DNA of 42,966 nucleotides from IMG/VR virus record IMGVR_UViG_3300045988_093752. The stretch is one strand, 5' to 3'. The notes beneath the pieces are model-generated. The model did no database searches. It had not been told where the DNA came from and saw nothing but the letters and a program-made list of their open reading frames with translations. Below, piece after piece: positions 1-42,834 of the stretch; the stretch's first letter is position 1; every line of letters starts with the position of its first letter. A program made the position numbers and the translations under genes. Source of the stretch: a virus.

Positions 1-55
1 CTATTTATGCTTTATATAAAGTATATTTTACTTAATCCGTAAATTTTTCGTAGAA
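1..55. repeat. Terminal direct repeat, copy 1 (identical to 42912-42966)
   Basis: Read directly: ctatttatgctttatataaagtatattttacttaatccgtaaatttttcgtagaa occurs at both window ends, 55/55 identical, same orientation. Confidence 0.95.
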
Positions 56-477: not shown

Positions 478-1335
478 CTATTCAATCTCTGTCAATGGAC
501 CGGCTTTAACCCATACACCATTGATTCTGACGGTATCAGTTTGTAAATTAACCGCATCAACGCGTACACGATCAACATATACTACAGCATCCGTTGTATG
601 TAATACTTGGTCATTGTATCCATCTGAACCAGGAACCTTTGATACCATTGAGCATGGAAACCATCCACCTAATTGTTCTAGGTAGCAACATAAATCATCG
701 TTGATTTTCTTTAAGCCGACATTGCCAATTTTCATTTTGATTGAAGTTACCCAAGAACCTACATGAAGAATCTGATCAATAGCTTCTTTTGGTGCAGGCG
801 CAGGTGTACTTGGTACTGGCTTACCATCAAGTTTAGCATTTACTTCTTGAGCTAACTGATTCATTTTGCTATGTAAATAAGGCCCTGGACAAGATGTAGC
901 TGCGAACATTCTATGTTCTGTTAAGCTACCATTCGCATTACCAGTATAGCTTAATCTGAATCCGTATCGTTTACATACATCAACACATAGATTTACCAAT
1001 GCATTCCATGCTTTATCTGATACAGTCCAATTTGGAGCACAAGTTTCATTTGCAACCTCTACAGTAATAGCTTGACAATCGTTATAGTAATTCGATGAAG
1101 TCCATGCACGATTCTCTTCGTCAACATTCGCAACAATAGTACCATCTGAACCAATACAATAGTTAGCACTAGCCATTCGTCCACTTACTTGGAATGATTG
1201 AGCACATCTTTCTGCGGTCCATTGACAAGCCATGTGATGTACTGTAATTTTACAAACTTTAAAGCCGCCACGACCACGAGTGTAGTTGCTAGCAATTGCA
1301 GGAATATATTTATTCGCTAATTTAGAATATGACAT
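478..1335 (-). CDS. Endolysin: N-acetylmuramoyl-L-alanine amidase (Amidase_2/PGRP type) with C-terminal cell-wall-binding region
   Basis: Motifs KITVHHMA, SANYCIGSDG, AWTSSNYYND and AITVEVANE are typical of family-2 amidases. Last gene of the late operon, next to the holin. Confidence 0.85.
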   Translation of the reverse strand: MSYSKLANKYIPAIASNYTRGRGGFKVCKITVHHMACQWTAERCAQSFQVSGRMASANYCIGSDGTIVANVDEENRAWTSSNYYNDCQAITVEVANETCAPNWTVSDKAWNALVNLCVDVCKRYGFRLSYTGNANGSLTEHRMFAATSCPGPYLHSKMNQLAQEVNAKLDGKPVPSTPAPAPKEAIDQILHVGSWVTSIKMKIGNVGLKKINDDLCCYLEQLGGWFPCSMVSKVPGSDGYNDQVLHTTDAVVYVDRVRVDAVNLQTDTVRINGVWVKAGPLTEIE

Positions 1336-1418
1336 TAATCTTCACCTTCTTCTTTTCCATTTGATAACTCTGATTGAGCTTCTTCTGATAGTTCTTCAAA
1401 CTTCAATTCTTCATCCAT
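1335..1418 (-). CDS. Small acidic peptide (27 aa), hypothetical
   Basis: Not in the ORF track (<60 aa). AGGAGG lies 9 nt upstream of the ATG; stop overlaps the endolysin start (TAATG). Sequence MDEELKFEELSEEAQSELSNGKEEGED. Confidence 0.3.
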   Translation of the reverse strand: MDEELKFEELSEEAQSELSNGKEEGED

Positions 1419-1431
1419 AGACTTATACCTC

Positions 1432-1836
1432 CTAATTTTTCTCAACTAAATAATCTTGTATCTCTTTCCGAGTGGTCTTTAAGCTTTCTTTGTCACCATC
1501 CGACAACATTCCATCAAGAATAGCCATGTTTGCCTTTAACATCAGATCGCCTCGCTTCTTGTCCTCTTCCAACCGACCATCATGATCTGATAGAATGCGA
1601 GTATGTTCTTCTAATTTGCGATTGATACCTTCCTGATTCAAGGTTATCTTTTCAAGCGAATTCAATCGTTCGTTATCTCGATGCAATAATTCTGTATGTC
1701 TCTTCACCGTTTCTTTAAGATCATCACTCGGCTTTTTTAATTCTTTAACAATCTTCACAACACCCCAAATGGATGCTATGAATCCACAAATCCATACAAT
1801 TTGTTGGCTTGTAATTACAAAATCCATGCAAGCCAC
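1432..1836 (-). CDS. Membrane-anchored coiled-coil protein of the lysis cassette (function unknown)
   Basis: N-terminal hydrophobic helix VWICGFIASIWGVVKIV followed by a charged heptad-like region. Sits between holin and endolysin. Confidence 0.5.
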   Translation of the reverse strand: MACMDFVITSQQIVWICGFIASIWGVVKIVKELKKPSDDLKETVKRHTELLHRDNERLNSLEKITLNQEGINRKLEEHTRILSDHDGRLEEDKKRGDLMLKANMAILDGMLSDGDKESLKTTRKEIQDYLVEKN

Positions 1837-1841
1837 CTATT

Positions 1842-2111
1842 CTATTTTTCTTCTGTTTTGCCTTCAATAAAACGTGTGAAAGCTTGATGCATTCCAGTAC
1901 TAGCTAAACCCATCAAAGCGCCATACACTGCATTCTCGATTGACAAACCACTTACTGCTAAGTTTAGTACTAATCCAACAAATGCAAGCACTGTAGGAAT
2001 GTATTTATTTGGGAAACTTTCAAACGAAGTCTTTAAAATGTAGCCAACAATCAAGCAAGCCACAACAACAGCCAAAACAAAATATTTACTCAATTCTGCA
2101 AAATCAATCAT
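1842..2111 (-). CDS. Holin (putative)
   Basis: 89 aa with 2-3 hydrophobic helices (YFVLAVVVACLIVGYIL, IPTVLAFVGLVLNLAVSGL, VYGALMGLASTGM) and a charged C-terminus EGKTEEK. Upstream of the endolysin. Confidence 0.65.
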   Translation of the reverse strand: MIDFAELSKYFVLAVVVACLIVGYILKTSFESFPNKYIPTVLAFVGLVLNLAVSGLSIENAVYGALMGLASTGMHQAFTRFIEGKTEEK

Positions 2112-2123
2112 CTTTTATTCCTC

Positions 2124-2372
2124 CTATAATTTAGTTACATTCAACATCACATAACCATCTTTGAATCCATCATTAGTCGTGATGCTTCTAATTTGTGTCA
2201 TTCTAAACAAACCTGTATCTGTTTCTTTTCCTTCGTCTAACGATACTTGTTTAAATAACACATAGTCTTGTTCATTGATTTGTTTATCCGTCAAATCAAG
2301 AATGATAAAGTCGTGTTCTTGGAAAAAATTCCATAATTTAGTATTTAAATTGATTTCATGTGTTTTAACCAT
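2124..2372 (-). CDS. Small DUF3850/ASCH-like protein (tentative)
   Basis: 82 aa; the pattern THEINL...DFIILD...DYVLFKQ...TGLFRMTQI...GYVMLNV resembles DUF3850. By-eye assignment only. Confidence 0.4.
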   Translation of the reverse strand: MVKTHEINLNTKLWNFFQEHDFIILDLTDKQINEQDYVLFKQVSLDEGKETDTGLFRMTQIRSITTNDGFKDGYVMLNVTKL

Positions 2373-2414
2373 ATAAAATCCTCCTATTAATATAAAAAAG
2401 CGAGGTAAACAAAA

Positions 2415-3308
2415 ATGCTATATTCTGACAAATTAACATCCTGGTTAAAGGAAAAGAAAATCTATCTAAAATACAGCACTTACACAAATTATTGTAATGT
2501 GATCCACAATCATATATTACCATCACTTGGCAATTACCAGATTGAAGAGCTGAACAACGATATTCTGCAGGAGTATATTCTTCAAAAACTTGAAAATGGT
2601 CGCAAAGACGGAAAAAGCGGTATTTCTTTTAAATACGCAAAAGACATTATTCAAATTCTTAAATTTACACTTCCGTTCAAAGTCGATATTCAACTTCCCT
2701 ATCATCCACCTAAGGCGGTTGAGATTTTTGAAAAAGAACATCAAATAACATTAATTAATCACCTCCAATCTGAAATAAATCACAAGAACTTTGGAATACT
2801 TTTATGCATCCATACAGGAATCCGTATCGGTGAGCTATGCGCTCTTAAATGGTCTGATATAAACACTCAAACCAAGCTATTAAACATAAGCAAAACTATG
2901 ATACGTACATACACAAAAGAAGATGGTAGTCACTTGTATGTGACCCCACCTAAATCACGCTCTAGCACCAGAATGATTCCATTGAATAATTGGATAATGC
3001 ACTACGCAATCCTTCTACAAGGTGATGCAGATAACTATGTATTAACGAATCGAGATAAGCCAATAGAGCCTAATAAATATAGACTTTACTATAATAGAGT
3101 TTTAAAAGAACTTGACCTACCACACCTTAAATTCCATGCACTTCGTCATACATTCGCAACGAGATGTATTGAATGTGGATGTGATTACAAATCATTGAGC
3201 GAATTACTCGGCCACTCCAACGTATCAATCACAATGAACATCTACGTGCATCCTCAAATGGAGTTAAAACGTAAATGTGTTGAATTGCTTTGTGATTACT
3301 ATAAATGA
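2415..3308 (+). CDS. Tyrosine site-specific recombinase (Xer/Rci-like), candidate tail-fibre invertase
   Basis: Catalytic signature GIRIGE (Arg), HALRHTFATR (HxxR) and LLGHSNVSITMNIYVH (His/Tyr). 297 aa, RBS GAGGT. One of only a few plus-strand genes, 24 bp upstream of fibre cassette 1. Confidence 0.85.
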   Translation: MLYSDKLTSWLKEKKIYLKYSTYTNYCNVIHNHILPSLGNYQIEELNNDILQEYILQKLENGRKDGKSGISFKYAKDIIQILKFTLPFKVDIQLPYHPPKAVEIFEKEHQITLINHLQSEINHKNFGILLCIHTGIRIGELCALKWSDINTQTKLLNISKTMIRTYTKEDGSHLYVTPPKSRSSTRMIPLNNWIMHYAILLQGDADNYVLTNRDKPIEPNKYRLYYNRVLKELDLPHLKFHALRHTFATRCIECGCDYKSLSELLGHSNVSITMNIYVHPQMELKRKCVELLCDYYK

Positions 3309-3330
3309 CCATATACCAATAGATGTAAAT

Positions 3331-3343
3331 GTATGTCCTTTGA
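3331..3343 (+). repeat. Putative crossover site 1: GTATGTCCTTTGA
   Basis: Matches the reverse complement of 4186-4198 at 11/13 positions and 3618-3630 at 10/13. Contains the ATG that opens cassette 1. Confidence 0.7.
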
Positions 3344-3617
3344 TACTTACACTGTAGGAGGTGAGTACCGGCATAAACTGACAATTGATGAATTACCATC
3401 TCATGCCCATAAGCCTCACGATTGGGATGTCATCACTGCTCAAGGTGGTAATACCGGATATTACAACATGACATATCTAAGTGATCGAACCGGAGTATTT
3501 AATCCTTTCACTTATGATTATGACAAAGATAGATATGGTTCATATGTCGGTAATAATGAGCCTCACTACAATGTACCTCCATACGTTGTCACATACTTTT
3601 GGCGTAGAATCGCATAG
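3333..3617 (+). CDS. Silent alternative tail-fibre C-terminal cassette 1 (tail-collar-type tip)
   Basis: MSFDTYTVGGEYRHKLTIDELPSHAHKP...PHYNVPPYVVTYFWRRIA parallels the last 94 aa of the fibre. No Shine-Dalgarno upstream; opposite strand to the fibre. Confidence 0.75.
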   Translation: MSFDTYTVGGEYRHKLTIDELPSHAHKPHDWDVITAQGGNTGYYNMTYLSDRTGVFNPFTYDYDKDRYGSYVGNNEPHYNVPPYVVTYFWRRIA

Positions 3618-3630
3618 GTATGTCATTTAC
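3618..3630 (+). repeat. Putative crossover site 2: GTATGTCATTTAC
   Basis: 12/13 match to the reverse complement of 4186-4198. Contains the ATG that opens cassette 2. Confidence 0.7.
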
Positions 3631-3919
3631 AACCTTTGGAGCAGGTGGCGAGTACAATCACAAATTGGACTGTTACGAGATGCCAAACCACTCACATAAC
3701 GAATATGCAATGATTGAAGGATATAGCGAATGGGATAGCTTTACCCCTATTCCCTATTCAATGTTGTTTAATTGGGGAAAAGGAGAATATCGTGACAGTG
3801 GAACATATCATGCTGCTAGAGTACCGTTAAACTCTGTCACTTCAGATGAAGGAGGAAGCCGAAGCCACAACAACATTCAACCTTATATCGTTGTTTATTT
3901 CTGGAGAAGAATTAACTAA
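3620..3919 (+). CDS. Silent alternative tail-fibre C-terminal cassette 2 (tail-collar-type tip)
   Basis: MSFTTFGAGGEYNHKLDCYEMPNHSHNE...SHNNIQPYIVVYFWRRIN. No Shine-Dalgarno. Its stop overlaps the fibre stop convergently (8-bp overlap, 3912-3919). Confidence 0.75.
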   Translation: MSFTTFGAGGEYNHKLDCYEMPNHSHNEYAMIEGYSEWDSFTPIPYSMLFNWGKGEYRDSGTYHAARVPLNSVTSDEGGSRSHNNIQPYIVVYFWRRIN

Positions 3920-5786
3920 TACGTTTCCAAAAATATACAGTAATGTATGGTTGTATATTATTATGCGATTTCCCACTTCCAACGTAGCCGGTTGGTTGTG
4001 GAACTGTAGACGAGCGCCCCCACGTTAAATTTGGTATTTTATATCCACCTTCATTTTTGTCTGTAAACGAACCGATTTCTCTTGTACTTCCATTGCCCAA
4101 GAAATATAAAGCTTCGGTATGATTGTGTTTTGGCATTTCAGCAATTTCTAAACTATGTACATATTCGCCACCATTAGAATTAGACGTAAAGGACATACTT
4201 GTACTACCATCATTTCCGGTCCCTTCACCAACCAAAGTTCGACCTTGCCCAAAGCGCTCCCAAGTGCCTCCTAAGAAGTTACCTGGATTGTTGTTGCCAT
4301 ATGTAATATAAACTGCACCAACTGGGAATATCTTATTCAAGAACACAGGAGCTACAATATCGCCTAATATAGTTAACGTGTCTTTTTGATTAGCATCTTG
4401 ACCGAAGAAAGTTAATGATCGTCCGTCTTTTCCAAAGTTAATTAAAGTGTAAGTTGGAGTTACAGTAAATATATTCCATGAATAATCATTCATGAATTTA
4501 TCCTTAACACCGAACGCAACCTCATAAGTAGCCGTTGTTGAAGTAAATAAATTACCTGCCTTGTAGTCTTGTTCAAGAGTATAGTTGTTATCCCATGAGT
4601 TTATTTTCGTCCACGAACTAGCACCACTTACTCGATATTGAATATAGAATGATGTAACATTCTTACCACTCAAACTTGTAAAGCCAACTTTGAAGTGTAA
4701 CAACGCATATGTTCCACTTGCTTCATCAATCACATAACTAGAATTAGCACGTTTAGCACTGATGTTGGTCATGCTTGGACTAGAATACGGAACTACTGCA
4801 ACCGAACCACTTTTAGAAGCAGTTCTACCACGTGAGTCTGTAACTGTTGTTGTATAGTTGATTGTTCCACTTGCATAGATTGTTGAAGTGGTAAAGTTGC
4901 TACCAATGTAATCTGCCGAATTGAACCGAGTTGATATAGACGAGATACTTGAACCTTGACTACCACTAGCACTAATTGCAAACTTTAATGCCGATTGACT
5001 CTGTACGATTTGTCCAATTCCTGCACAAATTGAATTTGTATCTGAAATTGAGATTGTACCAATACTAGGAACAACACCACTTCTAACTTTGATAGTCGCA
5101 TTTACCGACTTAGAACCAACGGATGTTGAACCACTGAATGTTTCTAAAGTAAATGTTGCGATACCACTTGTTGAGTTTGGTAAGTTCTTTTCCCAATCTG
5201 TAGGAATGGTATAAGAAAAGCTAGGGGATGTTGTTCCACTAGCTATTGTTCCTAAATATGTCGTTGTTCCGTTCCATGTTACATAAACTTTATGCGAGAA
5301 GTTACTTGATGCACTTGTACCACTGATTGTGATTGTATTACCACAATCTAAACTTGGCTTATTTATTGATGGTGTTGTTGCTCTTGGTATAGTTGTTAAA
5401 TTAACCGTTCCACTACAACTACCACTTCGAGGTGAGTAATATTGCGTGTTGCTACAACTAAATGATGCACTAACACTGATTGATTTAGAACCATCTGCAT
5501 TATGTGTAACTGTTATGTAACCATCCTTTACACCTAAAGTTTGTCCTTTCCCACAAGTAAGTGTGAAGTCCTTGTCAAGAACTGTTGTTCCATTTACAAC
5601 AACTTTGAAATGTTGCGGAACACTATTAAATGAATGATATTGTGTGTTAGAACGAATGCCAACCCACCAATAAACACGAGAAGTATTGTTTTCGATTGAG
5701 TAAGAATCTTCCCAACATTTTAGTATAAGAGAATATTTATTCTCATCACCTGCCGTGATTCGTATACTGCCACTAAATTCTGCCAT
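3912..5786 (-). CDS. Tail fibre / receptor-binding protein with C-terminal phage-tail-collar-type domain
   Basis: 624 aa, Ser/Thr/Gly-rich beta-type body. C-terminus PVGAVYITYG...GGTWERFGQGRTLVG...GGEYVHSLEIAEMPKHNHTE...SHNNIQPYITVYFWKRIS fits the collar (MdpB-like) pattern. Directly follows Tal. Confidence 0.8.
   Translation of the reverse strand: MAEFSGSIRITAGDENKYSLILKCWEDSYSIENNTSRVYWWVGIRSNTQYHSFNSVPQHFKVVVNGTTVLDKDFTLTCGKGQTLGVKDGYITVTHNADGSKSISVSASFSCSNTQYYSPRSGSCSGTVNLTTIPRATTPSINKPSLDCGNTITISGTSASSNFSHKVYVTWNGTTTYLGTIASGTTSPSFSYTIPTDWEKNLPNSTSGIATFTLETFSGSTSVGSKSVNATIKVRSGVVPSIGTISISDTNSICAGIGQIVQSQSALKFAISASGSQGSSISSISTRFNSADYIGSNFTTSTIYASGTINYTTTVTDSRGRTASKSGSVAVVPYSSPSMTNISAKRANSSYVIDEASGTYALLHFKVGFTSLSGKNVTSFYIQYRVSGASSWTKINSWDNNYTLEQDYKAGNLFTSTTATYEVAFGVKDKFMNDYSWNIFTVTPTYTLINFGKDGRSLTFFGQDANQKDTLTILGDIVAPVFLNKIFPVGAVYITYGNNNPGNFLGGTWERFGQGRTLVGEGTGNDGSTSMSFTSNSNGGEYVHSLEIAEMPKHNHTEALYFLGNGSTREIGSFTDKNEGGYKIPNLTWGRSSTVPQPTGYVGSGKSHNNIQPYITVYFWKRIS
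4186..4198 (-). repeat. Putative crossover site in the fibre gene: GTATGTCCTTTAC on the minus strand
   Basis: Plus strand reads gtaaaggacatac. Covers the fibre codons S-M-S-F. Inverted relative to the sites at 3331 and 3618. Confidence 0.7.
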
Positions 5787-5790
5787 TCAA

Positions 5791-8700
5791 TCACCCTACT
5801 TTCTTGAAGTCCAATGAACCATTTGCTCTTGGCACGAATCCAAATGCACCAACTTTTAAAGACTGCGTAAATTGACCGTCTGTAATGTACATTGTTTGAT
5901 CGTTTATATATGTTACCTTTGCACCATTCTTTTGAATCGACCATTCTTGGTTTGTAATCTTAGTTTTAAATGCACTGTCTGATTTACCTAAAGTTAATCC
6001 ATCATTATTAAAGCTCATGTAATTATTTACGTTGTCTGTGGTTTGCTTCAAGCCATCTAATCTTCCATTTACACTATTAATCTGACCGTTTAATTCGTTC
6101 TTTGCATCTGAAACATTCTGACTGATTTCCCATTTGAACTCACTCTTCGTCTGAGTAAACTGACTTGATACAGTATTTTGATAATGCTCAAATGCCGAAT
6201 TTGATACATAAGTTTCAGAAACCTTTGAAGTAATTTCATTTGCCTTAGTTTCAATTGCAGACTGTCGCTCAGTACGTTCAGTGTTTATTGCTTCATCTAC
6301 ATCTTCTGGAGCAGGAGTCCAGTCTGTTGCTTTGTTACCTTTTTCAAGTTTGAAATTACTCAAGATGATATTTGATGCAGTAGATGGCCGTCCTGTAAGA
6401 TCATCAATAATAAACTCCGTCCCTGGCAATATATCATTATTCGGGGTTCCAGTAGCATAACATCGTCCATTCTTATTTATGTATAATTGCCATGTCGCAT
6501 TTTGAACAGTTACTCCAAAAGACCAATTGCATCCACTCGGTACATTCGAAGCATCACATGATATAGTGTATATCTCTCCTTTAATTAGCTTTTGATATGC
6601 TTTCAAGTAGAAATATGTATCATCTACTCCTGTACCAACCTTTATTGATAAATCATCTATTTTGGTTATCTGGCCACCAGCTCGTATATATTGCATTAAT
6701 AAATTACGCCCACCAATTTGTAAGTTATCAATCTTATTACTAGTTTCAGTAATCGAAGTAGCTTGTAATTTAATCGCATTTGCATTTTGTTCAATTTTAG
6801 TTGTATTTGAAGAAACTTTGTTTGTTAGTTCTGCGAGTTCTTTCTGAGCTTGTTCTGCTTTAGCTTTTGCATCATCCGCCACTCCTTGAGCTGTCTTTGC
6901 ATTGCTGATTGCCGTAGTTGCGTTGCCTTGAGCCTTAGTTGCATCAGATTGAGCTTTCTCCACTGCAGTTTCTGCGTTTGTTAAACGAGTTTGAGCTTTT
7001 GTGATTTCGCTCTCAGTCGCATCAACTCTACCAGTCACTGATTCTAGATTAGCTTTTGCATCCGCTAATTCCTTGTTAGCATTGTCTAAATTTAATTGAG
7101 CACTGTCTGCCTTTTGTTTAGCTTCATCTGCTAATGACTGAGCACTCTGTGCATTTGTAATTGCTTGACTAGCAGTTGATTGTGCTTGCGTTGCCTTTTT
7201 TGTTGCTTCAGTAATATCTAACTGAGCTTGAGTTGTATCTGATTGCAATCTTTCAATTGAACTTGCTTGAGTTGATATTGTATCTGCAGTTTGTTGAAAC
7301 TTCGTGTTCATACTTCCTTCAAGTGTTGTTAAATCACTCTTAGAAGCATAATTTTGAGAAACTGTAGTCGACAGTTCACCGACTTTCTCTTCGATTTCAG
7401 TTGTTACCTCTGCATGAATAGATTTTGATTCAGTAGTTAAATCAACTTTTGTAGCATACGTTTCTTTTACAGTAGCAATTTCTCCTGCATTGGCATTTGC
7501 CTTATCAACTGCATCTTGAATCTGTTGCTTTGAATCATTGATATCCCCTTTAATCGCATCAATCTGTTTCTGAGCGTTACCAGTACTAGTATTTGCTTCT
7601 TGTGCTAGTTGCTTAGCTTCACTTGATTGAGTGTTAGCAGTATTAGCTAATTCATTCGCTTTTGTTGCATCTGCCTGAGCTTGTGTTGCCTTATCAACTG
7701 CTTCTTTTGATTGAGTATTTGCTACTGATACTTGAGTGTGAATCTCACCAATCTTTGCATCAATTTCATTCCATGTGTTATCAAAAATAGCTTTCGTATA
7801 TTTGATTTCACTCGGATTAGCATACGTACACTTCCAACGTTTCCATAGGAACTTATCACTTTGATAAACCACATTACCAACGAACCATTCACCACCGATT
7901 AATTCGGTTTGAGATGTAGAATAATAGAATTGTTCCTCGGCACTCACAAATGACTGACCATCTTCACCTTTGATTGCACTCCATCTGTACTTAGTTGGGT
8001 CTTCAGAACCATACTGCTTTGAATCAGAATACTGACCAATAAATTTACGATTTGAATCTGTCAAACTAAAATCAACTCGCCCATCTGAACTATTGGCATA
8101 GGCAATATGTACATATGCGCTTGTTCCATTCTGACCGTCTTGTAGTCGCATTACAGTGACTTCTGCAGTGGCTTTTAGTATTTCACCGCTCATCGCTTTA
8201 AATCGGTATACAGCCTTTTCTGTGAAGTCTGAAGCATTGACTGTGATTGTTTGGCTTGTTGATATTTGCTCATCATCCTTGAACCATGTAATTGAATACT
8301 TAGATGTAATATCAACCCCAGCATCCTTTACCAATGCAGTCAATTTAGTGCTATCTGAATCATTTTTAAAAAGAACCCCATTTGAAGATACAATCGAGCC
8401 TTCATAAACTTTCTTTAACTCAATCATCTTGTTCATTTCACTGATCAGAGCTGAACTTATCTGTGATTGCTTTTCTTCAAAGTTATCAAAGATTGTCTTG
8501 CACTTCTCGGAATCCGTAAAGCAAATCTCCTGTTCTGTAATTCGTGCTTCTAAATATAAAGTAGGACTATACTCCGCATCTTCGATTGTAAATGTATCAC
8601 CGATATCTGCATCAATATATGCATCCACATCATATGTAACTTTAGGAACACAATTCTTTTTTAATTCTGCTAAAGCTTGTCCATATAATACCTCTACATT

Positions 8701-9576
8701 ATCGGTGTCGTAACTCCATATCTTAGCAATATACATATCATTATTGTGATTTGTGATTAATGTACTAGGAAACCTATCTCTGGCTTGTGGAGCTAACAAA
8801 TTGTTGCCGCCAACTTTGTACAGCACATTACCATTTGAGTCTTTAACCACTCGACCACTGATTGAATTTAACTGTAATCCGTTCCTACCGGTTGGCCTTA
8901 TCGCAGTATACAATTCAGTAATATCACTTGTTTTAGTGATTCCGTAAATATTATTAGGATATCTTAAGATCGTACTGCGTTTATCTGTTCCCATTCCTTG
9001 AGCACTATCTGAATGAGCACGATAAACATTCAATACAACTCTTTTCAATGAATAATCATCATTCAATTGAGTTACAAACTCTAATTCTGCGTCAAATACA
9101 TTTGCGATTGAATACAATCGAGCCAGAACTGTATCATCACCGGTCCATTCATGTGTGATTCGTTTATCTGATACTTCATTTTTGCCGATAACAAATGATT
9201 GTTCAAATCCAAACGCATTTACATATTCCGCAAATGACATAGCTCTAGGAGCTTTATATTCACCTACATATTCATTTGTCAATTCTAGGCAAAGACCATA
9301 GGCAGTGACTTTTGTTTCGTCACCGCCCTTTTCAACATTCATGATTGTTAAATAATATCCTTTGTTTTTTCTTATAAAGCTCAGTTTATTTCCTTCAACT
9401 AAAAAGGCTGCATCATTATGTGCAGTCAATGTAGTAAATTCAAATGTATACGATGAGCCTTTTAAATAAGTATGCAATGTTTCATCGAAGTAATGCATTG
9501 CGCTAGGCACAGTATTGTCTAGAAAAGCTAACACCTTATCGTAAGGAGTTAATACTGCTATTCTTATAAATTCCAT
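5791..9576 (-). CDS. Tail-associated (Tal / prophage tail endopeptidase-type) baseplate protein with long coiled coil and CBM-like module
   Basis: About 1260 aa after Dit. Likely start is ATG at 9576 (GGGAGG 10 nt upstream, TAATG coupling with the Dit stop). Ala/Gln-rich coiled coil at ~6720-7760; GGRNLL...KLEKGNKATDWTPAPED module at ~6300-6720. Confidence 0.75.
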   Translation of the reverse strand: MEFIRIAVLTPYDKVLAFLDNTVPSAMHYFDETLHTYLKGSSYTFEFTTLTAHNDAAFLVEGNKLSFIRKNKGYYLTIMNVEKGGDETKVTAYGLCLELTNEYVGEYKAPRAMSFAEYVNAFGFEQSFVIGKNEVSDKRITHEWTGDDTVLARLYSIANVFDAELEFVTQLNDDYSLKRVVLNVYRAHSDSAQGMGTDKRSTILRYPNNIYGITKTSDITELYTAIRPTGRNGLQLNSISGRVVKDSNGNVLYKVGGNNLLAPQARDRFPSTLITNHNNDMYIAKIWSYDTDNVEVLYGQALAELKKNCVPKVTYDVDAYIDADIGDTFTIEDAEYSPTLYLEARITEQEICFTDSEKCKTIFDNFEEKQSQISSALISEMNKMIELKKVYEGSIVSSNGVLFKNDSDSTKLTALVKDAGVDITSKYSITWFKDDEQISTSQTITVNASDFTEKAVYRFKAMSGEILKATAEVTVMRLQDGQNGTSAYVHIAYANSSDGRVDFSLTDSNRKFIGQYSDSKQYGSEDPTKYRWSAIKGEDGQSFVSAEEQFYYSTSQTELIGGEWFVGNVVYQSDKFLWKRWKCTYANPSEIKYTKAIFDNTWNEIDAKIGEIHTQVSVANTQSKEAVDKATQAQADATKANELANTANTQSSEAKQLAQEANTSTGNAQKQIDAIKGDINDSKQQIQDAVDKANANAGEIATVKETYATKVDLTTESKSIHAEVTTEIEEKVGELSTTVSQNYASKSDLTTLEGSMNTKFQQTADTISTQASSIERLQSDTTQAQLDITEATKKATQAQSTASQAITNAQSAQSLADEAKQKADSAQLNLDNANKELADAKANLESVTGRVDATESEITKAQTRLTNAETAVEKAQSDATKAQGNATTAISNAKTAQGVADDAKAKAEQAQKELAELTNKVSSNTTKIEQNANAIKLQATSITETSNKIDNLQIGGRNLLMQYIRAGGQITKIDDLSIKVGTGVDDTYFYLKAYQKLIKGEIYTISCDASNVPSGCNWSFGVTVQNATWQLYINKNGRCYATGTPNNDILPGTEFIIDDLTGRPSTASNIILSNFKLEKGNKATDWTPAPEDVDEAINTERTERQSAIETKANEITSKVSETYVSNSAFEHYQNTVSSQFTQTKSEFKWEISQNVSDAKNELNGQINSVNGRLDGLKQTTDNVNNYMSFNNDGLTLGKSDSAFKTKITNQEWSIQKNGAKVTYINDQTMYITDGQFTQSLKVGAFGFVPRANGSLDFKKVG

Positions 9577-11099
9577 TACAACCATGCCTCCCTAATTCTA
9601 GCTTTTATCGTTGGCTTTGATTCCGTCCAACTTGAACAAGTAAGCTTTACTTCCGTCTCACCTACTGGTGCTTTGAAATATTTAGTTCCCAACACCTCAT
9701 CTTGAGGTCTAGACATTCCATTTACATAAACATGAGATGATTCACCATCAATTGTAATCTTAGTGCCACTTGGATATCTATTAGGAATATCTCTCCATTT
9801 TGTTACGTTATTTTTGAAGAAGTTGATAACATTGAAACCTAACATATTCAACATCTGGTTGCCACTACGATTACCCCATTGTTTAAATGCAACTTGAATC
9901 TTAGCACACTCCATATCAGCAATTTCCGGAATGTAATAATTGTAGTATTTACCATAGTAGAAGAATCTGATGTTTCCACCCTCTTTTAACACATCGCAGT
10001 GCCCCCAGTTCCAGTACCAAGGATTTTGGCTGTTCAAATGTGATGATGTATATTTCCATTGCTTTAAAGTTTTGCCATTTGCCCATATGTCATAATGAGC
10101 GCTGTTACCAACCGCATCCGTCTTATGCCAGTTACAACCACAGATTAATTTATTATCTGCAGTTAAAAAGTTAATACACATTTCACCGGTTTGACCCATA
10201 AGACTTGCCCAAAGCAACACATGAAAGTAGCAATAAAAGTTCTTTGCACCTTTTTTACCAGTTGAATCTGCAGGAAGAACAAATGTTCTTAATCCACCAT
10301 TCGCATTTCCTTTTTTATTTCCAACAGTTCCAAAGCCAAGAAACTTTGTGTTAAACCATGTATGTTGAGCACAAGTACCATTAGCACCATACTGTGGATG
10401 CATATACTCAGTACCATTTACATCGTCCGGACAATTGAAAAAGTCATTAATGCTAGCTAGTTGTTCACTCTGTTGATATGTTTCAGAATCTAATTCTTCA
10501 ATCTTTCCGTACTGCATAACTCCTTCAGTTGATACGATACCAATATATCCAGTTTCAGATGTTGTCTGAACTTCATAATCAATACTTACCGGTACAGTTC
10601 CCTCATTTACAATATTTAATACTCCATCAGTATCGGTAAATTCTTTTTCAGTTGTTGAATACTTGCGTGGGTCAGAACAATAGATTTCGATTTCACCGAT
10701 CACGTTATTACTTCCGCCATCAACTTGTGTATTTGAAGTTTTTGTTCCAATAAAATACTTGTTACTTTCATCGTTAAAAATGACTTTTACTTGCTCACCA
10801 CTCAACAATTTATTCATCTTATTGTAAGCTTCTCGAAATTCTCTGCTTCCTCTAGCTCTCAACTGGTACCTAACAGTAATTGTTCTTGCAGGAGTTGTTT
10901 TATATCTGTAATAAGAACCATCCATTCCATCAATTTCAGTATGTGTTACTTCTGATTCCATCAACTCACGTCCTGTTACAGAAAGTGTACGATATCCATC
11001 TATTTCATTTTCTAAATATACACCATTATATGACATGGCTTCTGTCGGTAGGTTAGTACCGACGATGCCACTATTTACAGTATTTACGAACGCATACAT
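9576..11099 (-). CDS. Distal tail protein (Dit), enlarged 'evolved' form
   Basis: Position directly after the tape measure. N-terminus MYAFVNTVNSG...SYNGVYLENEIDGYRTLSVTGRE is typical of siphovirus Dit. 507 aa, longer than I recall for classical Dit proteins. Confidence 0.7.
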   Translation of the reverse strand: MYAFVNTVNSGIVGTNLPTEAMSYNGVYLENEIDGYRTLSVTGRELMESEVTHTEIDGMDGSYYRYKTTPARTITVRYQLRARGSREFREAYNKMNKLLSGEQVKVIFNDESNKYFIGTKTSNTQVDGGSNNVIGEIEIYCSDPRKYSTTEKEFTDTDGVLNIVNEGTVPVSIDYEVQTTSETGYIGIVSTEGVMQYGKIEELDSETYQQSEQLASINDFFNCPDDVNGTEYMHPQYGANGTCAQHTWFNTKFLGFGTVGNKKGNANGGLRTFVLPADSTGKKGAKNFYCYFHVLLWASLMGQTGEMCINFLTADNKLICGCNWHKTDAVGNSAHYDIWANGKTLKQWKYTSSHLNSQNPWYWNWGHCDVLKEGGNIRFFYYGKYYNYYIPEIADMECAKIQVAFKQWGNRSGNQMLNMLGFNVINFFKNNVTKWRDIPNRYPSGTKITIDGESSHVYVNGMSRPQDEVLGTKYFKAPVGETEVKLTCSSWTESKPTIKARIREAWL

Positions 11100-14000
11100 T
11101 ATCTGTTACCTCGCAATCTCTCATTGAATTTTGAATGTTTGTTAATCTCATTCTGATTTGCTCTGTATGTTGCACGTGCGAACTCTCTGTCATTGATATA
11201 AAGTGGTGCTTCAACAGTTAATTGAGCGTTGCTAGTGTAATCGTATTCTGCATTCATATCACTCACAACACCTCCAAAAGCCATTTTAGGAGTGTTCATC
11301 ATTGGAAGATATAATAATTCCTCCGCCGCTTTTTTTGCTTGAGGAACCATTCCTAGAATACCATTACAGAAGCCTTTTCCAATCCACATACCATCTTTTT
11401 TAGTAACTTTAGATGGAGAACCGATTTTAGCCTTTGCTTGGATTGCAGCATCTGCAGCTGCTGCTAAACTAGCGGCCGCTGCTCTAACAGAACCTTCACT
11501 AGCTCTTAAACCATTTGCCAATCCTTGACCAATCATACGACCACAGTATTCTGCTCGTGATTGACATGCATTGAATGCACTGATAATGCTATTGCATGAA
11601 GATCTTGCAACAGACACACCTTTTGAAAGTCCACCTTTTAAGCCACTCGTAAAGTTGGTTCCCATTGCAGTTCCTGAAGTAGTAGCTTTTGCCTCTGCAT
11701 TTGTTAATGCACTTGTAATCATTGACATACTGCTCACAACAACACTAGATGCACTTGTAAATGCTCCGCTGATTAATGATGCTACTGTAACGAGTGCCGC
11801 CATACTTGCAGATGTTGCCATTACTGAACTTGCTACAGGTGCAATAGCTCCTGCAAATGCAGTCATAGCTCCACTTGCAACTGTTAATGGTTCTGAAATT
11901 CCGCTTAATGAGCTTAAAGCATCTGATAATAATGGAATCGTCGCAGATAACGATTCGATACCTGCTTGCGTTGCAACAATCATTGTTAGCGCAGTTGCCA
12001 ATGTCATCATTTGAGCACCTACATCACCTAAACCGCTTGATGCGGTTGCAATGGCACCAACTCCTGTTGCTACTGCAGCTAAACTTGCACCTATATCAAA
12101 TAAATTCAAACTAGTAATGATTTGGATTCCTTTTGCTAATTCCTTGAATCCTTTACCTGCATTCAATGCCGATTGACCAATCGAATCAATCACACCTGCT
12201 AATGAATCTAAAATACCACTTACTGCATCACCAAATGATGTAATCACATCTGAAATTCCATCGAACACTGTTTTAATAACATCGCCAAACGATTGCAATG
12301 TATTACAAATTCCTTCAAAGGTTGTCTGAATCACAGGTCCCAATGCAGTTACGACTGTGCCAACACCTTCAAGGATCGCTTGCATTCCTTCTCCTTGAGA
12401 AGCAACCAACGCCATAGCAACACCAACTGCTAGAATTGCAACCGATAATGCCAACCATGTAGTTGGCGGTACTAATGCAATTGCAGTTCCTAAACCTGTA
12501 AATGCAGTTGCCAATCCTTGTCCGATTCCTTGTGCTACTGTACTGATTGCAGTACCGAATGATTCAATGACTGTACCGACCCCTTCCAAAGCCGATTTAA
12601 TGCCTTGCCCGATACCTTGAAATGCAGTACTAATAGCTTCTCCTAAACCTGTGATGATTCCCTTTACACCTTCACATACTGAAGAAATAACATTTGAAAT
12701 CCCTTCAAATGCGGATTTTATAATCTGTGCTGCTTTAGATGTTTTATATGCGGTTTTCATTGTGGTATCACCAATACCATCACTTGGAGTTTGATTTTGT
12801 GGTAATTGTCCAGGTATTTCTTGAGTTGGTTCTTTTCCTAAACCTTTGATTTTATCAATGATTGATTTTAGTTTTGAATATCCGCCTTTCGCAGAGCCAA
12901 CAACTCCACTAATTGTGCTAGAAACTTTGCTACCTACTTTGATACCAACAAATGCTCCTGCCAACAATTTAATTGCACCTGCAAACTTCTTAACATCTTC
13001 TGTTTTAAGATTTGCTATAAAATCTGCGATTTTTCCTGTTACTTCTGATACTTTAGATACAATATTTCCAATATCTTGACCTAACTGTTCAAAGACTTTA
13101 CTGTCTTGCAACTTATCCATTACATTTCCAATAGCATCTTTGATTTTATCGAACATCGTGATTGCGTTTTGTACTGCATCTGTTTTCATGAATCCGTCAT
13201 AGAATTGTTGGATCATAGCTTTAGCATTGTTTGCTCTGTCAGCCAACCAATCCATAGCCTTTGATACATTTTCCATGACTTCTGGTTTAAAGTCCCATGT
13301 CAAACCATCGTCCTTAGTTTCCATAATTGAATTTCTGAAATCATAGATTTTTGATTTAATCTTTTCTAGATTATCAACTAATCCACCCATAGCTTTCGAT
13401 TTCATCATATTGTCCATAGCCGACATAAAGCCTTGTTCAAGGTTCTGTACCGCACTCTTGATGTTAGTCATGGATGTTTTAACACCTTTAGAAGCTTCTA
13501 ATGCAGTTTCTGCAAATCCACCTGTTTCAGTATCACATTCAATCATTGCATCATTGAATTGGTCGAATGTAATCGTTCCATTCTTTAAGGCCTCATATAA
13601 TTCATTTGCATCTCCGCTCGCAATACCTAGTTTCTTAGATACTTTAGTCAATGCAGGTGCCATTGTTTCCTGCAGTGTTCGCCATGATTGCATATCTACT
13701 GACCCTTTAGCGAGCATCTGTGAATACTGTTGTAAGCCACGTGATGCATCTTCGGAACTAGATCCACTTGCTAAAAACGCATGGTTCAATGCGATTGTAG
13801 TATCAGTTGCCTTATCAATATTACCTGTAACGGCAGCCAACGACTTAGATGTTGTTACTACATCCGCCAAACTCGTTGGTAAGCCTTGTACTGATTGATT
13901 TAATTTCGCAACACTCCTTTGAGATTGCTCAACTGAGAATCCCAAAGACTTCATTACTTTTGGATAGGATTGCATGGTATCAAATCTTGTGATAGCACCA

Positions 14001-14182
14001 TCCATGGATGAGCTAAGAACGTTCATTGTTGCGCCAATAGCTTTTGTTATGCCGACACCTGCCACAATAGATTTAACTCTATCGCCAAATGATTCGCACG
14101 CTCCTAAAGCTTTTTTCATTGTAGACGTCATGTTTTTGTCGGTTGCCGACAATATAGCTTCAACGCTAAAACTTTCTGCCAT
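11099..14182 (-). CDS. Tape measure protein
   Basis: 1027 aa, largely helical with Gly/Ala-rich hydrophobic repeats. Located after the chaperone pair and before Dit. Confidence 0.85.
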   Translation of the reverse strand: MAESFSVEAILSATDKNMTSTMKKALGACESFGDRVKSIVAGVGITKAIGATMNVLSSSMDGAITRFDTMQSYPKVMKSLGFSVEQSQRSVAKLNQSVQGLPTSLADVVTTSKSLAAVTGNIDKATDTTIALNHAFLASGSSSEDASRGLQQYSQMLAKGSVDMQSWRTLQETMAPALTKVSKKLGIASGDANELYEALKNGTITFDQFNDAMIECDTETGGFAETALEASKGVKTSMTNIKSAVQNLEQGFMSAMDNMMKSKAMGGLVDNLEKIKSKIYDFRNSIMETKDDGLTWDFKPEVMENVSKAMDWLADRANNAKAMIQQFYDGFMKTDAVQNAITMFDKIKDAIGNVMDKLQDSKVFEQLGQDIGNIVSKVSEVTGKIADFIANLKTEDVKKFAGAIKLLAGAFVGIKVGSKVSSTISGVVGSAKGGYSKLKSIIDKIKGLGKEPTQEIPGQLPQNQTPSDGIGDTTMKTAYKTSKAAQIIKSAFEGISNVISSVCEGVKGIITGLGEAISTAFQGIGQGIKSALEGVGTVIESFGTAISTVAQGIGQGLATAFTGLGTAIALVPPTTWLALSVAILAVGVAMALVASQGEGMQAILEGVGTVVTALGPVIQTTFEGICNTLQSFGDVIKTVFDGISDVITSFGDAVSGILDSLAGVIDSIGQSALNAGKGFKELAKGIQIITSLNLFDIGASLAAVATGVGAIATASSGLGDVGAQMMTLATALTMIVATQAGIESLSATIPLLSDALSSLSGISEPLTVASGAMTAFAGAIAPVASSVMATSASMAALVTVASLISGAFTSASSVVVSSMSMITSALTNAEAKATTSGTAMGTNFTSGLKGGLSKGVSVARSSCNSIISAFNACQSRAEYCGRMIGQGLANGLRASEGSVRAAAASLAAAADAAIQAKAKIGSPSKVTKKDGMWIGKGFCNGILGMVPQAKKAAEELLYLPMMNTPKMAFGGVVSDMNAEYDYTSNAQLTVEAPLYINDREFARATYRANQNEINKHSKFNERLRGNR

Positions 14183-37850: not shown

Positions 37851-38353
37851 GCAGCACTTGAGGTGCCACTTCACTGTATTGATACTCATAGACTTTGGAA
37901 TTTGATTTTTTAATCGTTTCAGTTATTGGGGATATCTTTAACGATATTTTGTTAGTAGTTTTGGAGGCTGTACTCACCTCTTTAATAAAGTGTTATTGTT
38001 ATGCTAGATTATAGTTTTTTCTATATGTACATTTTTATGATCAAACCACTAAGTCTAATATCTGTTTTTTGCGAAAAGAGGTATTTCTTTTTTGTATCAA
38101 CAGTATTCTGCTAGAAAATTTAAGGGGTTTTATTTTGAAACAATCTACTCCTGAACAACTGCATGTGATAAGGTCTGTAGAGCACTGATCCAGGATTCGA
38201 TTGGACTTGAACGAACAAACTAGCAGGTTTATGTATAAGAGCTTTTCTTAGGCTCTCGAAGCAACACCTCAAGTACTGACCAGAGTATTTCTGCATTTAT
38301 GTGCACTTATTAAAATTCGATGATACTATGTATCCTGGAAGGAGGTGATTTAT

Positions 38354-38869
38354 ATGCGTAAATGCTTTTTTGTTACACCTATTGGCGACAAAGGGTCAGA
38401 AGTTCGTATTCATTCTGATCAAGTGTTGAGGCACCTGTTGAAACCAGTATGTTCAGAACTAGATTTTGAACCTATTCGAGTAGATAAAATTGCTAAGACT
38501 TCAGTTTTAACAGATGACATATTCAACCACTTAAAAGATGATGACCTTGTAATCGTAGATATCACGGGTCACAATCCTAATGTTTTTCTTGAACTGGGCT
38601 ACCGTATGGGCCTTGGTAGACCGTACATCATCATTCAGGACTGTGAATATAAAGCAAACTACCCTTTTGATATTTCAAATATTCGTATCATGTCTTATAG
38701 CCTGGACCTAGATGGTATTGAAACTTCAAAAAGTGAACTTAGTAGTTTTATCAAAAACACAGACTTTTCCAGTCTAAACACTATAAATGTTTTTCCAGAT
38801 GTCCCAGGAGAATCAAATTTAGAAGTCATTCGTGAACCTGATGGCGGAATTAGCATCAATGTTAAGTAA
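38354..38869 (+). CDS. Plus-strand moron: Rossmann-like protein (nucleoside 2-deoxyribosyltransferase/TIR-like signature), function unknown
   Basis: GGAGG 8 nt upstream of ATG 38354. KCFFVTPIGDKGSE...DDLVIVDITGHNPNVFLELGYRMGLGRPYIIIQ. Opposite strand to the surrounding early genes. Confidence 0.6.
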   Translation: MRKCFFVTPIGDKGSEVRIHSDQVLRHLLKPVCSELDFEPIRVDKIAKTSVLTDDIFNHLKDDDLVIVDITGHNPNVFLELGYRMGLGRPYIIIQDCEYKANYPFDISNIRIMSYSLDLDGIETSKSELSSFIKNTDFSSLNTINVFPDVPGESNLEVIREPDGGISINVK

Positions 38870-40356: not shown

Positions 40357-41316
40357 ATGGAAGAAATTAAACAAAAACTTGTGGATAAAAGTATTGAAGC
40401 GTTTATTATGGGGTTAGAAATTTATAATAAGCCAACTATTAAATATAGGATTGAAGGTTTTAGCTTCTTCATATGTAATGCTTGGGAACTCATGTTAAAA
40501 GCTGAGTTGTTAAATCGAAATGAAGATATTTATTACAGTGATAAATCAGGTAGGACGCTAAGTTTAGAACCAACAATTAAAAAAATATACTCTGATAAAA
40601 ATACCAGAGTTAGGTTAAATCTAGAAAAAATCATTGAGTTGAGAAACATTAGCACTCATTTTATTACTGAGGACTATGAAGCAAAATACGCACCTTTATT
40701 TCAAGCTTGTGTTTTAAATTTTGTAAATGAAATAAAACGGTTTCACAACATAGATATTTCAAATTATATCTCTCAGAACTTTCTAACAATAACTGCAAAC
40801 TATGAACCGCTATCGAATGAGCAAATTCGATTAAAATATCCACCTGAAATTGCAGAAAGATTTATTCAACAATCTAATCAAATTGATGTATTGACTCAAG
40901 AGTATGATTCAGATAAGTTTGCTATTCCAATTAAGCAAAATTTATATATAACAAAAAAGAAAGATGAGGCAGATTTTGTCATCGCTATGGCTAGTGAATC
41001 ACCTAATAAAGTTGCTATTGTTAAGGAATTAAAAGATCCCGCAAATACACATAAATACGCTTTTAACAATGTAATTGCAGTTGTAAACAATAGACTTTCC
41101 AAGTCAAATATAAAACTTGGCTACAAAAACGGTTTTAATTCTTATGTTTTAAATCTATTTATAGAGTTTTACGATATCAAAAGCGATAATAAGTATTCAT
41201 ATAAACATTCATTAGGAAATTCTACATCATACACATACTCTGAAAGATTAATTGATTTTATCATAAACGAAATAAAAAAGAATCCTGATGGATTCGTTGA
41301 AAGTTTGAAAAAGTAA
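40357..41316 (+). CDS. DUF3644-like protein co-transcribed with the repressor (candidate lysogen-expressed exclusion/defence factor)
   Basis: VDKSIEAFIMGLEIYNKPTIKYRIEGFSFFICNAWELMLKAELL...LRNISTHF is a DUF3644-like pattern. GGAGGTG RBS 12 nt after the CI stop. Confidence 0.55.
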   Translation: MEEIKQKLVDKSIEAFIMGLEIYNKPTIKYRIEGFSFFICNAWELMLKAELLNRNEDIYYSDKSGRTLSLEPTIKKIYSDKNTRVRLNLEKIIELRNISTHFITEDYEAKYAPLFQACVLNFVNEIKRFHNIDISNYISQNFLTITANYEPLSNEQIRLKYPPEIAERFIQQSNQIDVLTQEYDSDKFAIPIKQNLYITKKKDEADFVIAMASESPNKVAIVKELKDPANTHKYAFNNVIAVVNNRLSKSNIKLGYKNGFNSYVLNLFIEFYDIKSDNKYSYKHSLGNSTSYTYSERLIDFIINEIKKNPDGFVESLKK

Positions 41317-41754: not shown

Positions 41755-42834
41755 ATGCCTATTTATGAGCGCCTACACAATGGAAAGAAACAATGGTGTT
41801 ACCGTTGTTACTATACTGATTTTAATGGAGATCGTGTTCAAAAACATTCCAAATGGTTTAACGCCAGGAAAGAAGCGGTAGCAGCTGAATCTGCTTTTAT
41901 GCAATTGAAAGTTGTTGGAGATCAGAACGTAACCTTCTATGAAGTTACTTTAAAATGGTATGAATTTAAGTCTAGAACATTGAAGCCATCCACACTGGAT
42001 ACTAAAAGAGTATATCTAAATATGTTGTCCCCGCTTAATGATAAGAAGATGGCCAAGATTACATATCTTGATATCGATAACTTTTTCGAATTACCACAGA
42101 TCAAATCTTATAAGTATTCGACCAAAAAAACTTTATTAACTAATCTCAGAAATATCTTTAAATTCGCGAAGAAATACTACGGTATTATCAATGATCCATT
42201 TTTTAAGATGGCACCTTTGGTTAAGCCTGTGTCCACGGAGGCTAAGAAGCTTGAAATCGTACCTAAAAGTGATTTTAAGACACTTTTTGAATATGCGGTA
42301 ACATCTAGAGAGGGAGCATGGAAAGATACGGCATACGCAATTTGGACGATGTATATGACAGGCATGCGTGTATCCGAATGTTTATCTTTAACCTTTGAGG
42401 ATTTTGACGGAAAATACATCCATATTCGCAGACAATATATTCGTGGTAAGTGGCAGACGCCAAAGACCAAGAATTCAATTCGTAAGATTGCAGTCGATGA
42501 AAAGACAAAATCTTTTATTTATGAATTGAAGAAATACTATTCTTCATTTGATGAATTTGAAGAGTCGTGGTTCATTTTTGGTGGATATAGACATATGGAT
42601 CCTGAAATGTTGAGATTAAGAAAAAACAAATTGTGTGCAGAAGCTGGAATCCATGAATTCAATATTCATGCGTTAAGGCACTCGCATGCTTCAAATTTGA
42701 TTGAGGCAGGTGTTAATATGTACAAGATATCGAAACGTCTAGGGCACTCTTCTATACGTACTACAATGGATATTTATGGACACTTGATTGACACTGAAGA
42801 AGAAGAGGTTTTGAATGCAATTTCGAACTTCTAA
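41755..42834 (+). CDS. int: Tyrosine integrase (lysogeny)
   Basis: GMRVSECLSLTFEDF (Arg), HALRHSHASNLIEAG (HxxR) and LGHSSIRTTMDIYGHL (His/Tyr). 359 aa with an N-terminal SAM-like region, GGAGGAA RBS. Confidence 0.9.
   Translation: MPIYERLHNGKKQWCYRCYYTDFNGDRVQKHSKWFNARKEAVAAESAFMQLKVVGDQNVTFYEVTLKWYEFKSRTLKPSTLDTKRVYLNMLSPLNDKKMAKITYLDIDNFFELPQIKSYKYSTKKTLLTNLRNIFKFAKKYYGIINDPFFKMAPLVKPVSTEAKKLEIVPKSDFKTLFEYAVTSREGAWKDTAYAIWTMYMTGMRVSECLSLTFEDFDGKYIHIRRQYIRGKWQTPKTKNSIRKIAVDEKTKSFIYELKKYYSSFDEFEESWFIFGGYRHMDPEMLRLRKNKLCAEAGIHEFNIHALRHSHASNLIEAGVNMYKISKRLGHSSIRTTMDIYGHLIDTEEEEVLNAISNF

Follow-up and report, generated by a model that had tools for sequence, protein, structure and literature searches.

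Several systems are known in which DNA inversion exchanges the C-terminal part of an adhesin. The phage serine invertases Gin (G segment of Mu), Cin (C segment of P1) and Min (p15B) swap tail-fibre C-termini and thereby change the host range (see also PMC6109161), while the shufflon of R64/IncI1 uses the tyrosine recombinase Rci, acting at sfx sites with a 7-bp central region, to vary the tips of PilV. In the Rin shufflon of Bifidobacterium breve and B. longum prophages, a phage tyrosine invertase shuffles the tips of a receptor-binding protein in a siphophage of a Gram-positive host (Mavrich et al. 2018; PMC6109161); it comprises an armless invertase encoded beside the constant gene part, variable tips and 11-bp rix sites, and Rin was called the first phage-encoded invertase of the tyrosine family by its authors (PMC6109161). 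Rin-type shufflons also occur in clade 1 prophages of Eggerthella lenta (PMC8778435, 2022), a tail-fibre shufflon with all configurations detected in reads was described for BV01-like phages of Phocaeicola vulgatus (2026 preprint, PMC13596623), and a systematic survey found tail fibres among the enriched targets of programmed inversions (PMC9881135). Here we analyse a locus in IMG/VR virus record IMGVR_UViG_3300045988_093752 (42,966 nt; the whole stretch is termed the window), in which a tyrosine recombinase gene and two silent cassettes adjoin a tail fibre gene. It is very probably a site-specific DNA-inversion shufflon which swaps the tip of the tail protein among three versions. A preliminary description, made from the letters of this DNA, had not recognised the combination as a described system; this was wrong, since the Rin shufflon precedes it, and the locus belongs to a known kind, the tyrosine-invertase tail-tip shufflons, the principle of which has been published since 2018.

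The layout of open reading frames (ORFs) proposed in that description, with a recombinase of 297 amino acids (aa), two cassettes and a 624-aa fibre on the minus strand, was recovered at exactly the coordinates given there (Table 1). The constant part of the fibre comprises DUF859 and, after it, the initial third of a C-terminal head domain resembling that of T4 gp10, and residues 483–623 of the whole protein match Gp10_C (Pfam, E 2e-24) as well as T4 gp10 (PDB 2FKK, E 7e-8). Both cassettes match only the C-terminal portion of Gp10_C (profile positions 55–139). Their proposed nature as alternative versions of the fibre tip holds: the three tips share the Gp10_C match and are mutually 36–44% identical; their ends (GGEY.H.L...E.P.H.H and HNN.QPY..VYFW.RI) are conserved, whereas the middle varies and would set receptor specificity and hence host range. 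As had been noticed, a Shine-Dalgarno sequence is missing from both cassettes, no purine-rich stretch being visible by eye before either ATG. The stop codons of cassette 2 and of the fibre overlap tail to tail by 8 nt (3912–3919, TTAACTAA), and the two tips thus abut without a spacer and move as one unit on inversion. The segment 3331–4198 holds tips only, with no other ORF of at least 40 aa and a family match. A diversity-generating retroelement was considered and dropped; the variation is cassette-wise, and no Pfam reverse transcriptase was found in the eight ORFs scanned (478–5786).

Table 1. Coordinates in the window of the fibre locus, its crossover sites and the adjoining tail genes
Feature	Coordinates	Strand	Remarks
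Putative shufflon recombinase, 297 aa	2415-3308	+	Pfam Phage_integrase (E 4e-29), Phage_int_SAM_3
Crossover site 1	3325-3343	+	GTAAAT-GTATGTC-CTTTGA; core 3331-3337, ATG of cassette 1 within core
Silent tip cassette 1, 94 aa	3333-3617	+	Pfam Gp10_C
Crossover site 2	3612-3630	+	GCATAG-GTATGTC-ATTTAC; core 3618-3624
Silent tip cassette 2, 99 aa	3620-3919	+	Pfam Gp10_C
Crossover site F, inside fibre gene	4204-4186	-	GTACAA-GTATGTC-CTTTAC; core 4198-4192
Largest invertible segment	3331-4198		868 bp core to core; nested 581-bp segment 3618-4198
Currently expressed tip, 94 aa, fibre residues 531-624	3912-4196	-	aligns with both cassettes
Constant part of distal tail protein, residues 1-530	4197-5786	-	Pfam DUF859 (E 5e-39)
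'Tail protein' (fibre), 624 aa	3912-5786	-	PHROG 372 (E 6e-75)
Tal-like host-specificity protein, 1264 aa	5791-9585		PHROG match
Dit	9576-11099		PHROG match
Tape measure	11099-14182		PHROG match; first of four consecutive tail genes

The ATG which opens each cassette belongs to the core GTATGTC of a short site that recurs within the fibre gene, where it codes for ...S-T-S-M-S-F-T... and where the ATG of the core is the codon of the internal Met531. The copies read GTATGTCCTTTAC (fibre), GTATGTCATTTAC (cassette 2) and GTATGTCCTTTGA (cassette 1), the fibre copy being inverted relative to both cassette copies. The 13-bp sequence of the preliminary description is therefore right as to a site which is present three times and inverted in the fibre, but not as to identical copies, only GTATGTC-N-TTT being exactly common to all three. 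The pattern GTATGTCNTTTRM has three matches in the 43-kb window, located only at 3331 (+), 3618 (+) and 4186–4198 (-), compared to a chance expectation of 0.02 as estimated from dinucleotide shuffles. A generic search for inverted repeats (seed 8) did not place these 11–13-bp sites among its top 25 pairs; they were recovered by the pattern search. The core lies in conserved Met-Ser-Phe-Thr codons in the middle of the gp10-like head domain, so that recombination there would exchange part of a domain. Site F corresponds to the sequence GGTAGTACAAGTATG, which is invariant in 31 expressed sites of related loci, and 129 of 129 cassette starts in relatives carry GTATG[T/A]C-N-TTT-AC. The consensus of 89 unique silent sites, gtaaAt-GTATGTC-nTTTAC, reads as a pair of imperfect inverted arms, GTAAA and TTTAC, around an asymmetric core. 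Each locus has a single core type (GTATGTC in 44 loci, GTATGAC in 7, mixed in none), which would be expected if recombination required the same core in both partners.

Public assemblies were queried by the exact protein sequences of the recombinase, tip and cassettes of the window, and human-gut contigs were returned; the public contigs and loci compared with the window are labelled by L-numbers (L001, L002, etc.). Three arrangements were found. In state A, represented by the window, L001, L002 and L147, the sequences are colinear with 100% identity over 2300–6000, and the 624-aa fibre carries its own tip. In state B (L004 from SRR33906041, L076 from SRR33454245), the stretch 3618–4198 is inverted at 100% identity and the fibre, now of 629 aa, ends in cassette 2. 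State C (L003 from SRR25638801, L075 from ERZ1744964) has 3331–4198 inverted at 99.8–100% identity, giving a 624-aa fibre with cassette 1. Flanks are colinear with the window in all four of the latter contigs. Both fusions are in frame on the constant 530 residues (629 aa ending ...RRIN, 624 aa ending ...RRIA), and in both inverted states the tip expressed before is parked as a silent ORF on the plus strand; the present tip was found as a free-standing 94-aa ORF in 8 contigs. The in-frame joining of the fibre to either cassette, which had been predicted from the window, is thus represented by both products in independent assemblies, at ~100% DNA identity and with breakpoints in the site. Of the two state C contigs, L075 encodes an intact fibre, and L003 has a premature stop in the constant part (~4900). 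L152, a relative of 91–94% identity, shows the state B arrangement, its recombinase ORF being called at only 101 aa. At the hybrid junctions of L004, upstream G/A and downstream A/C differences are split to opposite sides of GTATGTC, indicating that strand exchange occurred inside these 7 bp. The overlap region of tyrosine recombinases is ~7 bp, matching the length of the core.

All of this evidence comes from assembled contigs, and one IMG/VR contig (L040) does end in a fold-back copy of the 3' end of the recombinase gene, so that inverted arrangements generated by the assembly process have to be considered. However, the same two inversions were obtained from different samples and by different pipelines (Logan, MEGAHIT, SPAdes-style ENA assemblies), every k used exceeds the length of the repeat, and the products are exactly in frame, which leaves a negligible likelihood for artefacts. 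The fusions likewise bear on the proposal that both small ORFs are translated into separate proteins of their own, for instance chaperones or decoys, which share sequence with the tip through common ancestry only. Both ORFs open with ATG and lie on the same strand as the recombinase gene, 3' of it, so that co-transcription is possible; yet a Shine-Dalgarno sequence is lacking in both, each covers no more than the last two-thirds of a single domain, their ATG lies in the recombination core and specifies an internal methionine in the fibre, and other samples contain each of them as an in-frame extension of the fibre body. Free-standing proteins had been named beforehand as the finding that would overturn the switch; the observed fusions dispose of them, and we regard this proposal as highly improbable.

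A tail-tip shufflon would operate as follows. Each tip begins at the same site, a 7-bp asymmetric core, GTATGTC, which includes the Met codon, is followed by N-TTTAC and is preceded by a loosely conserved GTAAA-like arm. Recombination of the fibre site with an oppositely oriented cassette site would invert 581 or 868 bp, joining the constant body in frame to the other tip and turning the old tip into a silent cassette; the new tip would complete the T4 gp10-like head domain of the constant 530-residue body. With T denoting the present tip and c1 and c2 the cassettes, three sites would allow the four configurations c1+, c2+, T- (A), c1+, T+, c2- (B), T+, c2-, c1- (C) and c2+, T-, c1- (D), which encode three proteins. 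The three-state switch of the preliminary description hence stands at the level of the protein, but has to be extended to four reachable configurations of the DNA.

Assemblies also break at the core. L006 ends at 3341, L007 at 3624, L075 and L149 start at 3331, and L009, a contig of a Holdemanella metagenome-assembled genome (MAG), ends at ...GTATGTC. Two further samples yielded 581-bp scaffolds (L078, L079) which are identical to 3618–4198, starting with GTATGTC and ending with GACATAC. The assembly ERZ920083 (k=127) yielded L005, whose end at 3457 equals 3331+127-1, and the same sample also gave L149, beginning at 3331; ERZ28665006 comprises L006, which stops at the site, and a 912-bp scaffold in which the invertible segment is joined to the left flank as in state C. 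Since no assembler uses k-mers as short as these repeats (11–13 bp), such breaks should need reads which support several connections, and this suggests that both orientations coexist within one sample. An IMG/VR scan with the constant part of the fibre returned 63 loci, 58 of which retain the end of the constant part; 22 of these 58 contigs stop no more than 330 nt from the crossover site, many of them at +55/56 or +100, lengths typical of k-mer overhangs.

These observations also bear on whether the arrangements are merely fixed alleles, resulting from rare past rearrangements in separate lineages that have no active, reversible switch. Every long contig shows one arrangement only, the evidence being at the level of contigs, and signs of decay are apparent in the fibre of L003 (stop) and in the truncated recombinases of L064 (at residue 216), L070 (at 153) and L071 (at 68); together with L152, these look like decayed or locked relatives. 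Against fixed alleles, apart from the inversion the variants are 99.8–100% identical over 3.7 kb, assemblies from at least 4 samples break at the core or give the segment as a separate contig, the break recurs among the 58 IMG/VR contigs as described above, and catalytic residues of the recombinase are kept family-wide. We therefore consider fixed alleles improbable and retain active inversion as the explanation.

The recombinase consists of a SAM-like core-binding and a catalytic domain only, an arm-binding domain being absent according to Pfam, and the catalytic set R137, K180, H241, R244, H267 and Y277 is present and invariant in 118 relatives. Its gene, with GAGG located 9 nt before the ATG, stops 24 nt 5' of the ATG of cassette 1. 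It is distinct from the lysogeny integrase (359 aa, 41755–42834), to which it shows 25% identity over the catalytic domain, so that the position, intact signature and separateness attributed to it previously were all borne out. Among proteins of solved structure, it comes closest to Tn1549 Int (6EMY, E 1e-17) and XerA. None of the NCBIfam models passed its cut-off, the best being XerA (74 bits vs 220), with the FimB/FimE invertase models NF007370 and NF007371 at 25.9 and 18.9 bits vs 221 and 222; no resolvase (serine recombinase) domain was detected by Pfam. A tblastn search of 72,556 plasmids, a collection without R64 (AP005147), gave, among the matches listed, generic integrases only; the ten most frequent organism names, down to one with 28 records, did not include Escherichia, and Salmonella occurred once in the 40 rows listed. 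Neither these listed matches nor NCBIfam tied the protein to Rci, which itself was not directly compared. The best match in INPHARED phages was 38% identical and found in unannotated faecal contigs, homologues of 32–41% identity occur in Bacteroidales genomes, and one recombinase cluster alone represents 2,215 sequences.

Some distant homologues have gene contexts of their own. In L016 (966–9583), from a Bacteroidales MAG, a 37% identical homologue lies between inverted duplicate surface-protein genes, which code for 245-aa outer-membrane proteins and for coiled-coil lipoproteins of ~1000 aa; this looks like a surface-protein inversion locus outside phages. Two unannotated human faecal 'Bacteriophage sp.' contigs, L080 (1576–2996) and L081 (1063–2502), encode homologues of 35–38% identity within inverted repeats of 29 and 24 nt, respectively, which are ~1.37 kb apart, and the recombinase genes would thus sit inside a putative invertible segment; that of L080 adjoins Tad-pilus-like genes. 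The recombinase of the window may belong to a cross-phylum clade of invertases which flip surface-protein genes of Bacteroidales and self-contained segments in gut contigs, and the phages may have captured it from that clade. A copy of the recombinase with 94% identity in L008 (5317–11044) is interrupted at about residue 248 by an insert encoding three consecutive large serine recombinases (510, 545 and 539 aa), after which no cassettes or fibre gene follow.

The adjacent armless recombinase would catalyse the inversion, a role to which its strict linkage, its intact catalytic residues and the inversion contexts of distant homologues point. If inversion is real but another enzyme is responsible, it might be the phage integrase, an invertase supplied in trans (a host Xer-type enzyme or a different one), or RecA using the short repeats. 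Repeats of 11–13 bp are too short for efficient homologous recombination, which speaks against the RecA route. The role of the adjacent recombinase is deduced from sequence and linkage, and invertases acting in trans are known, such as Mpi of Bacteroides, for which we refer to its citation in PMC6109161. Nevertheless, the recombinase is linked to cassettes in every relative that is long enough and absent from cassette-free ones, the breakpoint lies inside the 7-bp core, as tyrosine recombinases would give, and distant homologues likewise occur in inversion contexts, in Bacteroidales and in other gut contigs. A different catalyst thus appears quite improbable to us, and the neighbouring gene is the presumed source of the activity.

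The module is widespread among related gut phages. An IMG/VR scan with the recombinase identified 52 viral loci of 62–96% identity, nearly all of which consist of the recombinase gene, followed by one to ~8 tip cassettes in mixed orientation and then by the constant part of the fibre gene. Another 23 pairs of related loci (88–99% identity) differ by internal inversions between colinear flanks. The recombinase is present in 29 of 29 contigs reaching at least 1.4 kb past the fibre. In contrast, Blautia phage NatCom_24097 and Streptococcus phage Javan57 have fibre homologues of ~30% identity which are followed directly by lysis genes, and both recombinase and cassettes are absent after them; the recombinase-plus-cassette unit therefore looks like an insert between fibre and lysis genes. 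The tips are diverse, with 128 unique proteins in 55 loci, forming ~40 clusters at a threshold of at least 50% identity.

Several points weigh against an active shufflon driven by the neighbouring recombinase. The link between this enzyme and the reaction is indirect, the phage integrase and a host enzyme remaining candidate catalysts, and mixtures of orientations within a sample are deduced from assembly breaks in contigs. The fourth predicted configuration (D) is not among the arrangements observed; its junction had zero matches in IMG/VR, as did the control junction of the window itself, so that this search is uninformative. Directly oriented sites, such as sites 1 and 2, should permit deletion, and the variable cassette numbers together with the truncated recombinases in L064, L070 and L071 suggest that deletion sometimes happens. 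Besides, the left arm of the site overlaps the stop codons of upstream ORFs, so that coding could account for part of its conservation. The proposed binding of a receptor by the tip is read from its homology to the C-terminus of T4 gp10 and from gene position, and a structure model of the C-terminal 155 residues, based on a three-row alignment, was unusable (predicted local distance difference test, pLDDT, 39; predicted template modelling score, pTM, 0.28).

A direct overlap of 55 bp joins the ends of the window (1–55 and 42912–42966; 35.7% G+C), which accordingly represents a circularly assembled, complete phage genome of ~42.9 kb. The phage is a temperate siphophage, probably of Holdemanella (Erysipelotrichaceae); the best genome match is a Holdemanella MAG (93%), followed by Floccifex and other Erysipelotrichaceae. 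In L002 and L005 the prophage adjoins bacterial genes, and L001 contains the circular junction, reading from integrase to amidase. The bacterial flank of L002 diverges near position 23 of the window, which is a putative attachment site. A megablast search with 2300–6000 of the window against INPHARED phages gave no match, i.e., no close relative among isolated phages, and scans of the window for transfer RNA genes and Rfam families found none.

Nearly all genes of the window are on the minus strand, where holin and amidase genes come after the fibre gene; the three ORFs for the recombinase and the cassettes lie between fibre and lysis genes on the plus strand. Promoter-like sites in 1800–6000 do not exceed their frequency in shuffled sequences, and no promoter is claimed; terminator-like sites were not found in a scan of the same region. 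With no terminator-like site and with lysis genes 3' of the fibre gene on the same strand, late transcription would cross the cassettes and the recombinase gene in antisense. Because this late fibre-to-lysis transcript would run antisense through the recombinase gene, we infer that switching would take place mainly in the prophage, i.e., in the lysogen. An 82-aa ORF between recombinase and holin genes (2124–2372, -) is kept in all close relatives and had no Pfam, PHROG or PADLOC match. The lysogeny module encodes a protein (40357–41316, +) matching the PADLOC candidate defence family PDC-S19 (E 9e-148), which also carries Pfam DUF3644 and EC042_2821, and a 174-aa ORF (38345–38869, +) is hit by a model of TIR effectors (E 2.9e-15); the two resemble defence genes carried by the prophage.

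The locus fits a single recombinase and three sites of 19 bp into 1.8 kb and is a compact model system, the states of which can be traced in existing metagenomes. The family is abundant in human gut data, and it systematically interrupts assemblies at the fibre gene, with consequences for the recovery of phage genomes and the prediction of host range for Holdemanella and its relatives. A defined core and a natural library of ~40 tips might serve as a basis for phages with switchable receptor specificity. In the literature searched, no such system was reported for phages of Erysipelotrichaceae or other Bacillota, which is not proof of absence; a shufflon of this kind is apparently undescribed so far for Erysipelotrichaceae phages. 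That it represents a very common family of receptor-binding-protein shufflons which evolved independently in Erysipelotrichaceae phages, the first for phages of Bacillota, is a tentative proposal, to which we assign slightly less than an even chance.

Among the described systems, Gin, Cin and Min resemble the present locus in that a phage-encoded invertase exchanges the C-terminal part of a tail fibre, theirs switching in the lysogen; they differ in relying on a serine recombinase with an enhancer and Fis and in co-inverting a chaperone gene, whereas a tyrosine recombinase and tip-only cassettes are found here. The R64 shufflon shares multiple inversions among short asymmetric sites, C-terminal segments of an adhesin-like protein and cassettes of mixed orientation. 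Its target is, however, the conjugative-pilus adhesin PilV on a plasmid of Enterobacteria rather than a phage tail protein (DUF859, Gp10_C, PHROG 372), and its site sequences are unrelated to the present ones. The BV01-like phages are likewise temperate gut phages with a recombinase-flanked, multi-cassette invertible region over the distal part of a tail-fibre gene. Unlike the present locus, they have a host among the Bacteroidota and six isoforms which differ by stop position, and their 10-bp motif TGGGAGAACT, as opposed to the GTATGTC site, is absent here.

The Rin shufflon is the closest known system, a likeness judged on architecture. Both have an armless tyrosine recombinase, distinct from the lysogeny integrase, beside the locus of a receptor-binding protein, a constant N-terminal part with several promoterless C-terminal cassettes, and a short asymmetric repeat at the cassette starts and in the gene, at which the inversion breakpoints lie; both are carried by temperate siphophages of Gram-positive gut hosts. 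The present recombinase may nevertheless not be homologous to Rin. The rix sequence TTCCCTAACCC, the counterpart of GTATGTC-N-TTTAC, is absent from the locus, its sole match in the window, with one mismatch, being at 27087; what is exchanged here is a portion of a T4 gp10-like head domain instead of a TP901-1-like or H-type-lectin tip; and the host phylum is Bacillota (Erysipelotrichaceae) as compared to Actinomycetota. An example from Bacillota thus joins the tyrosine-invertase tail-tip shufflons of Actinomycetota and Bacteroidota, supporting the view that temperate gut phages hedge across variable host surfaces.

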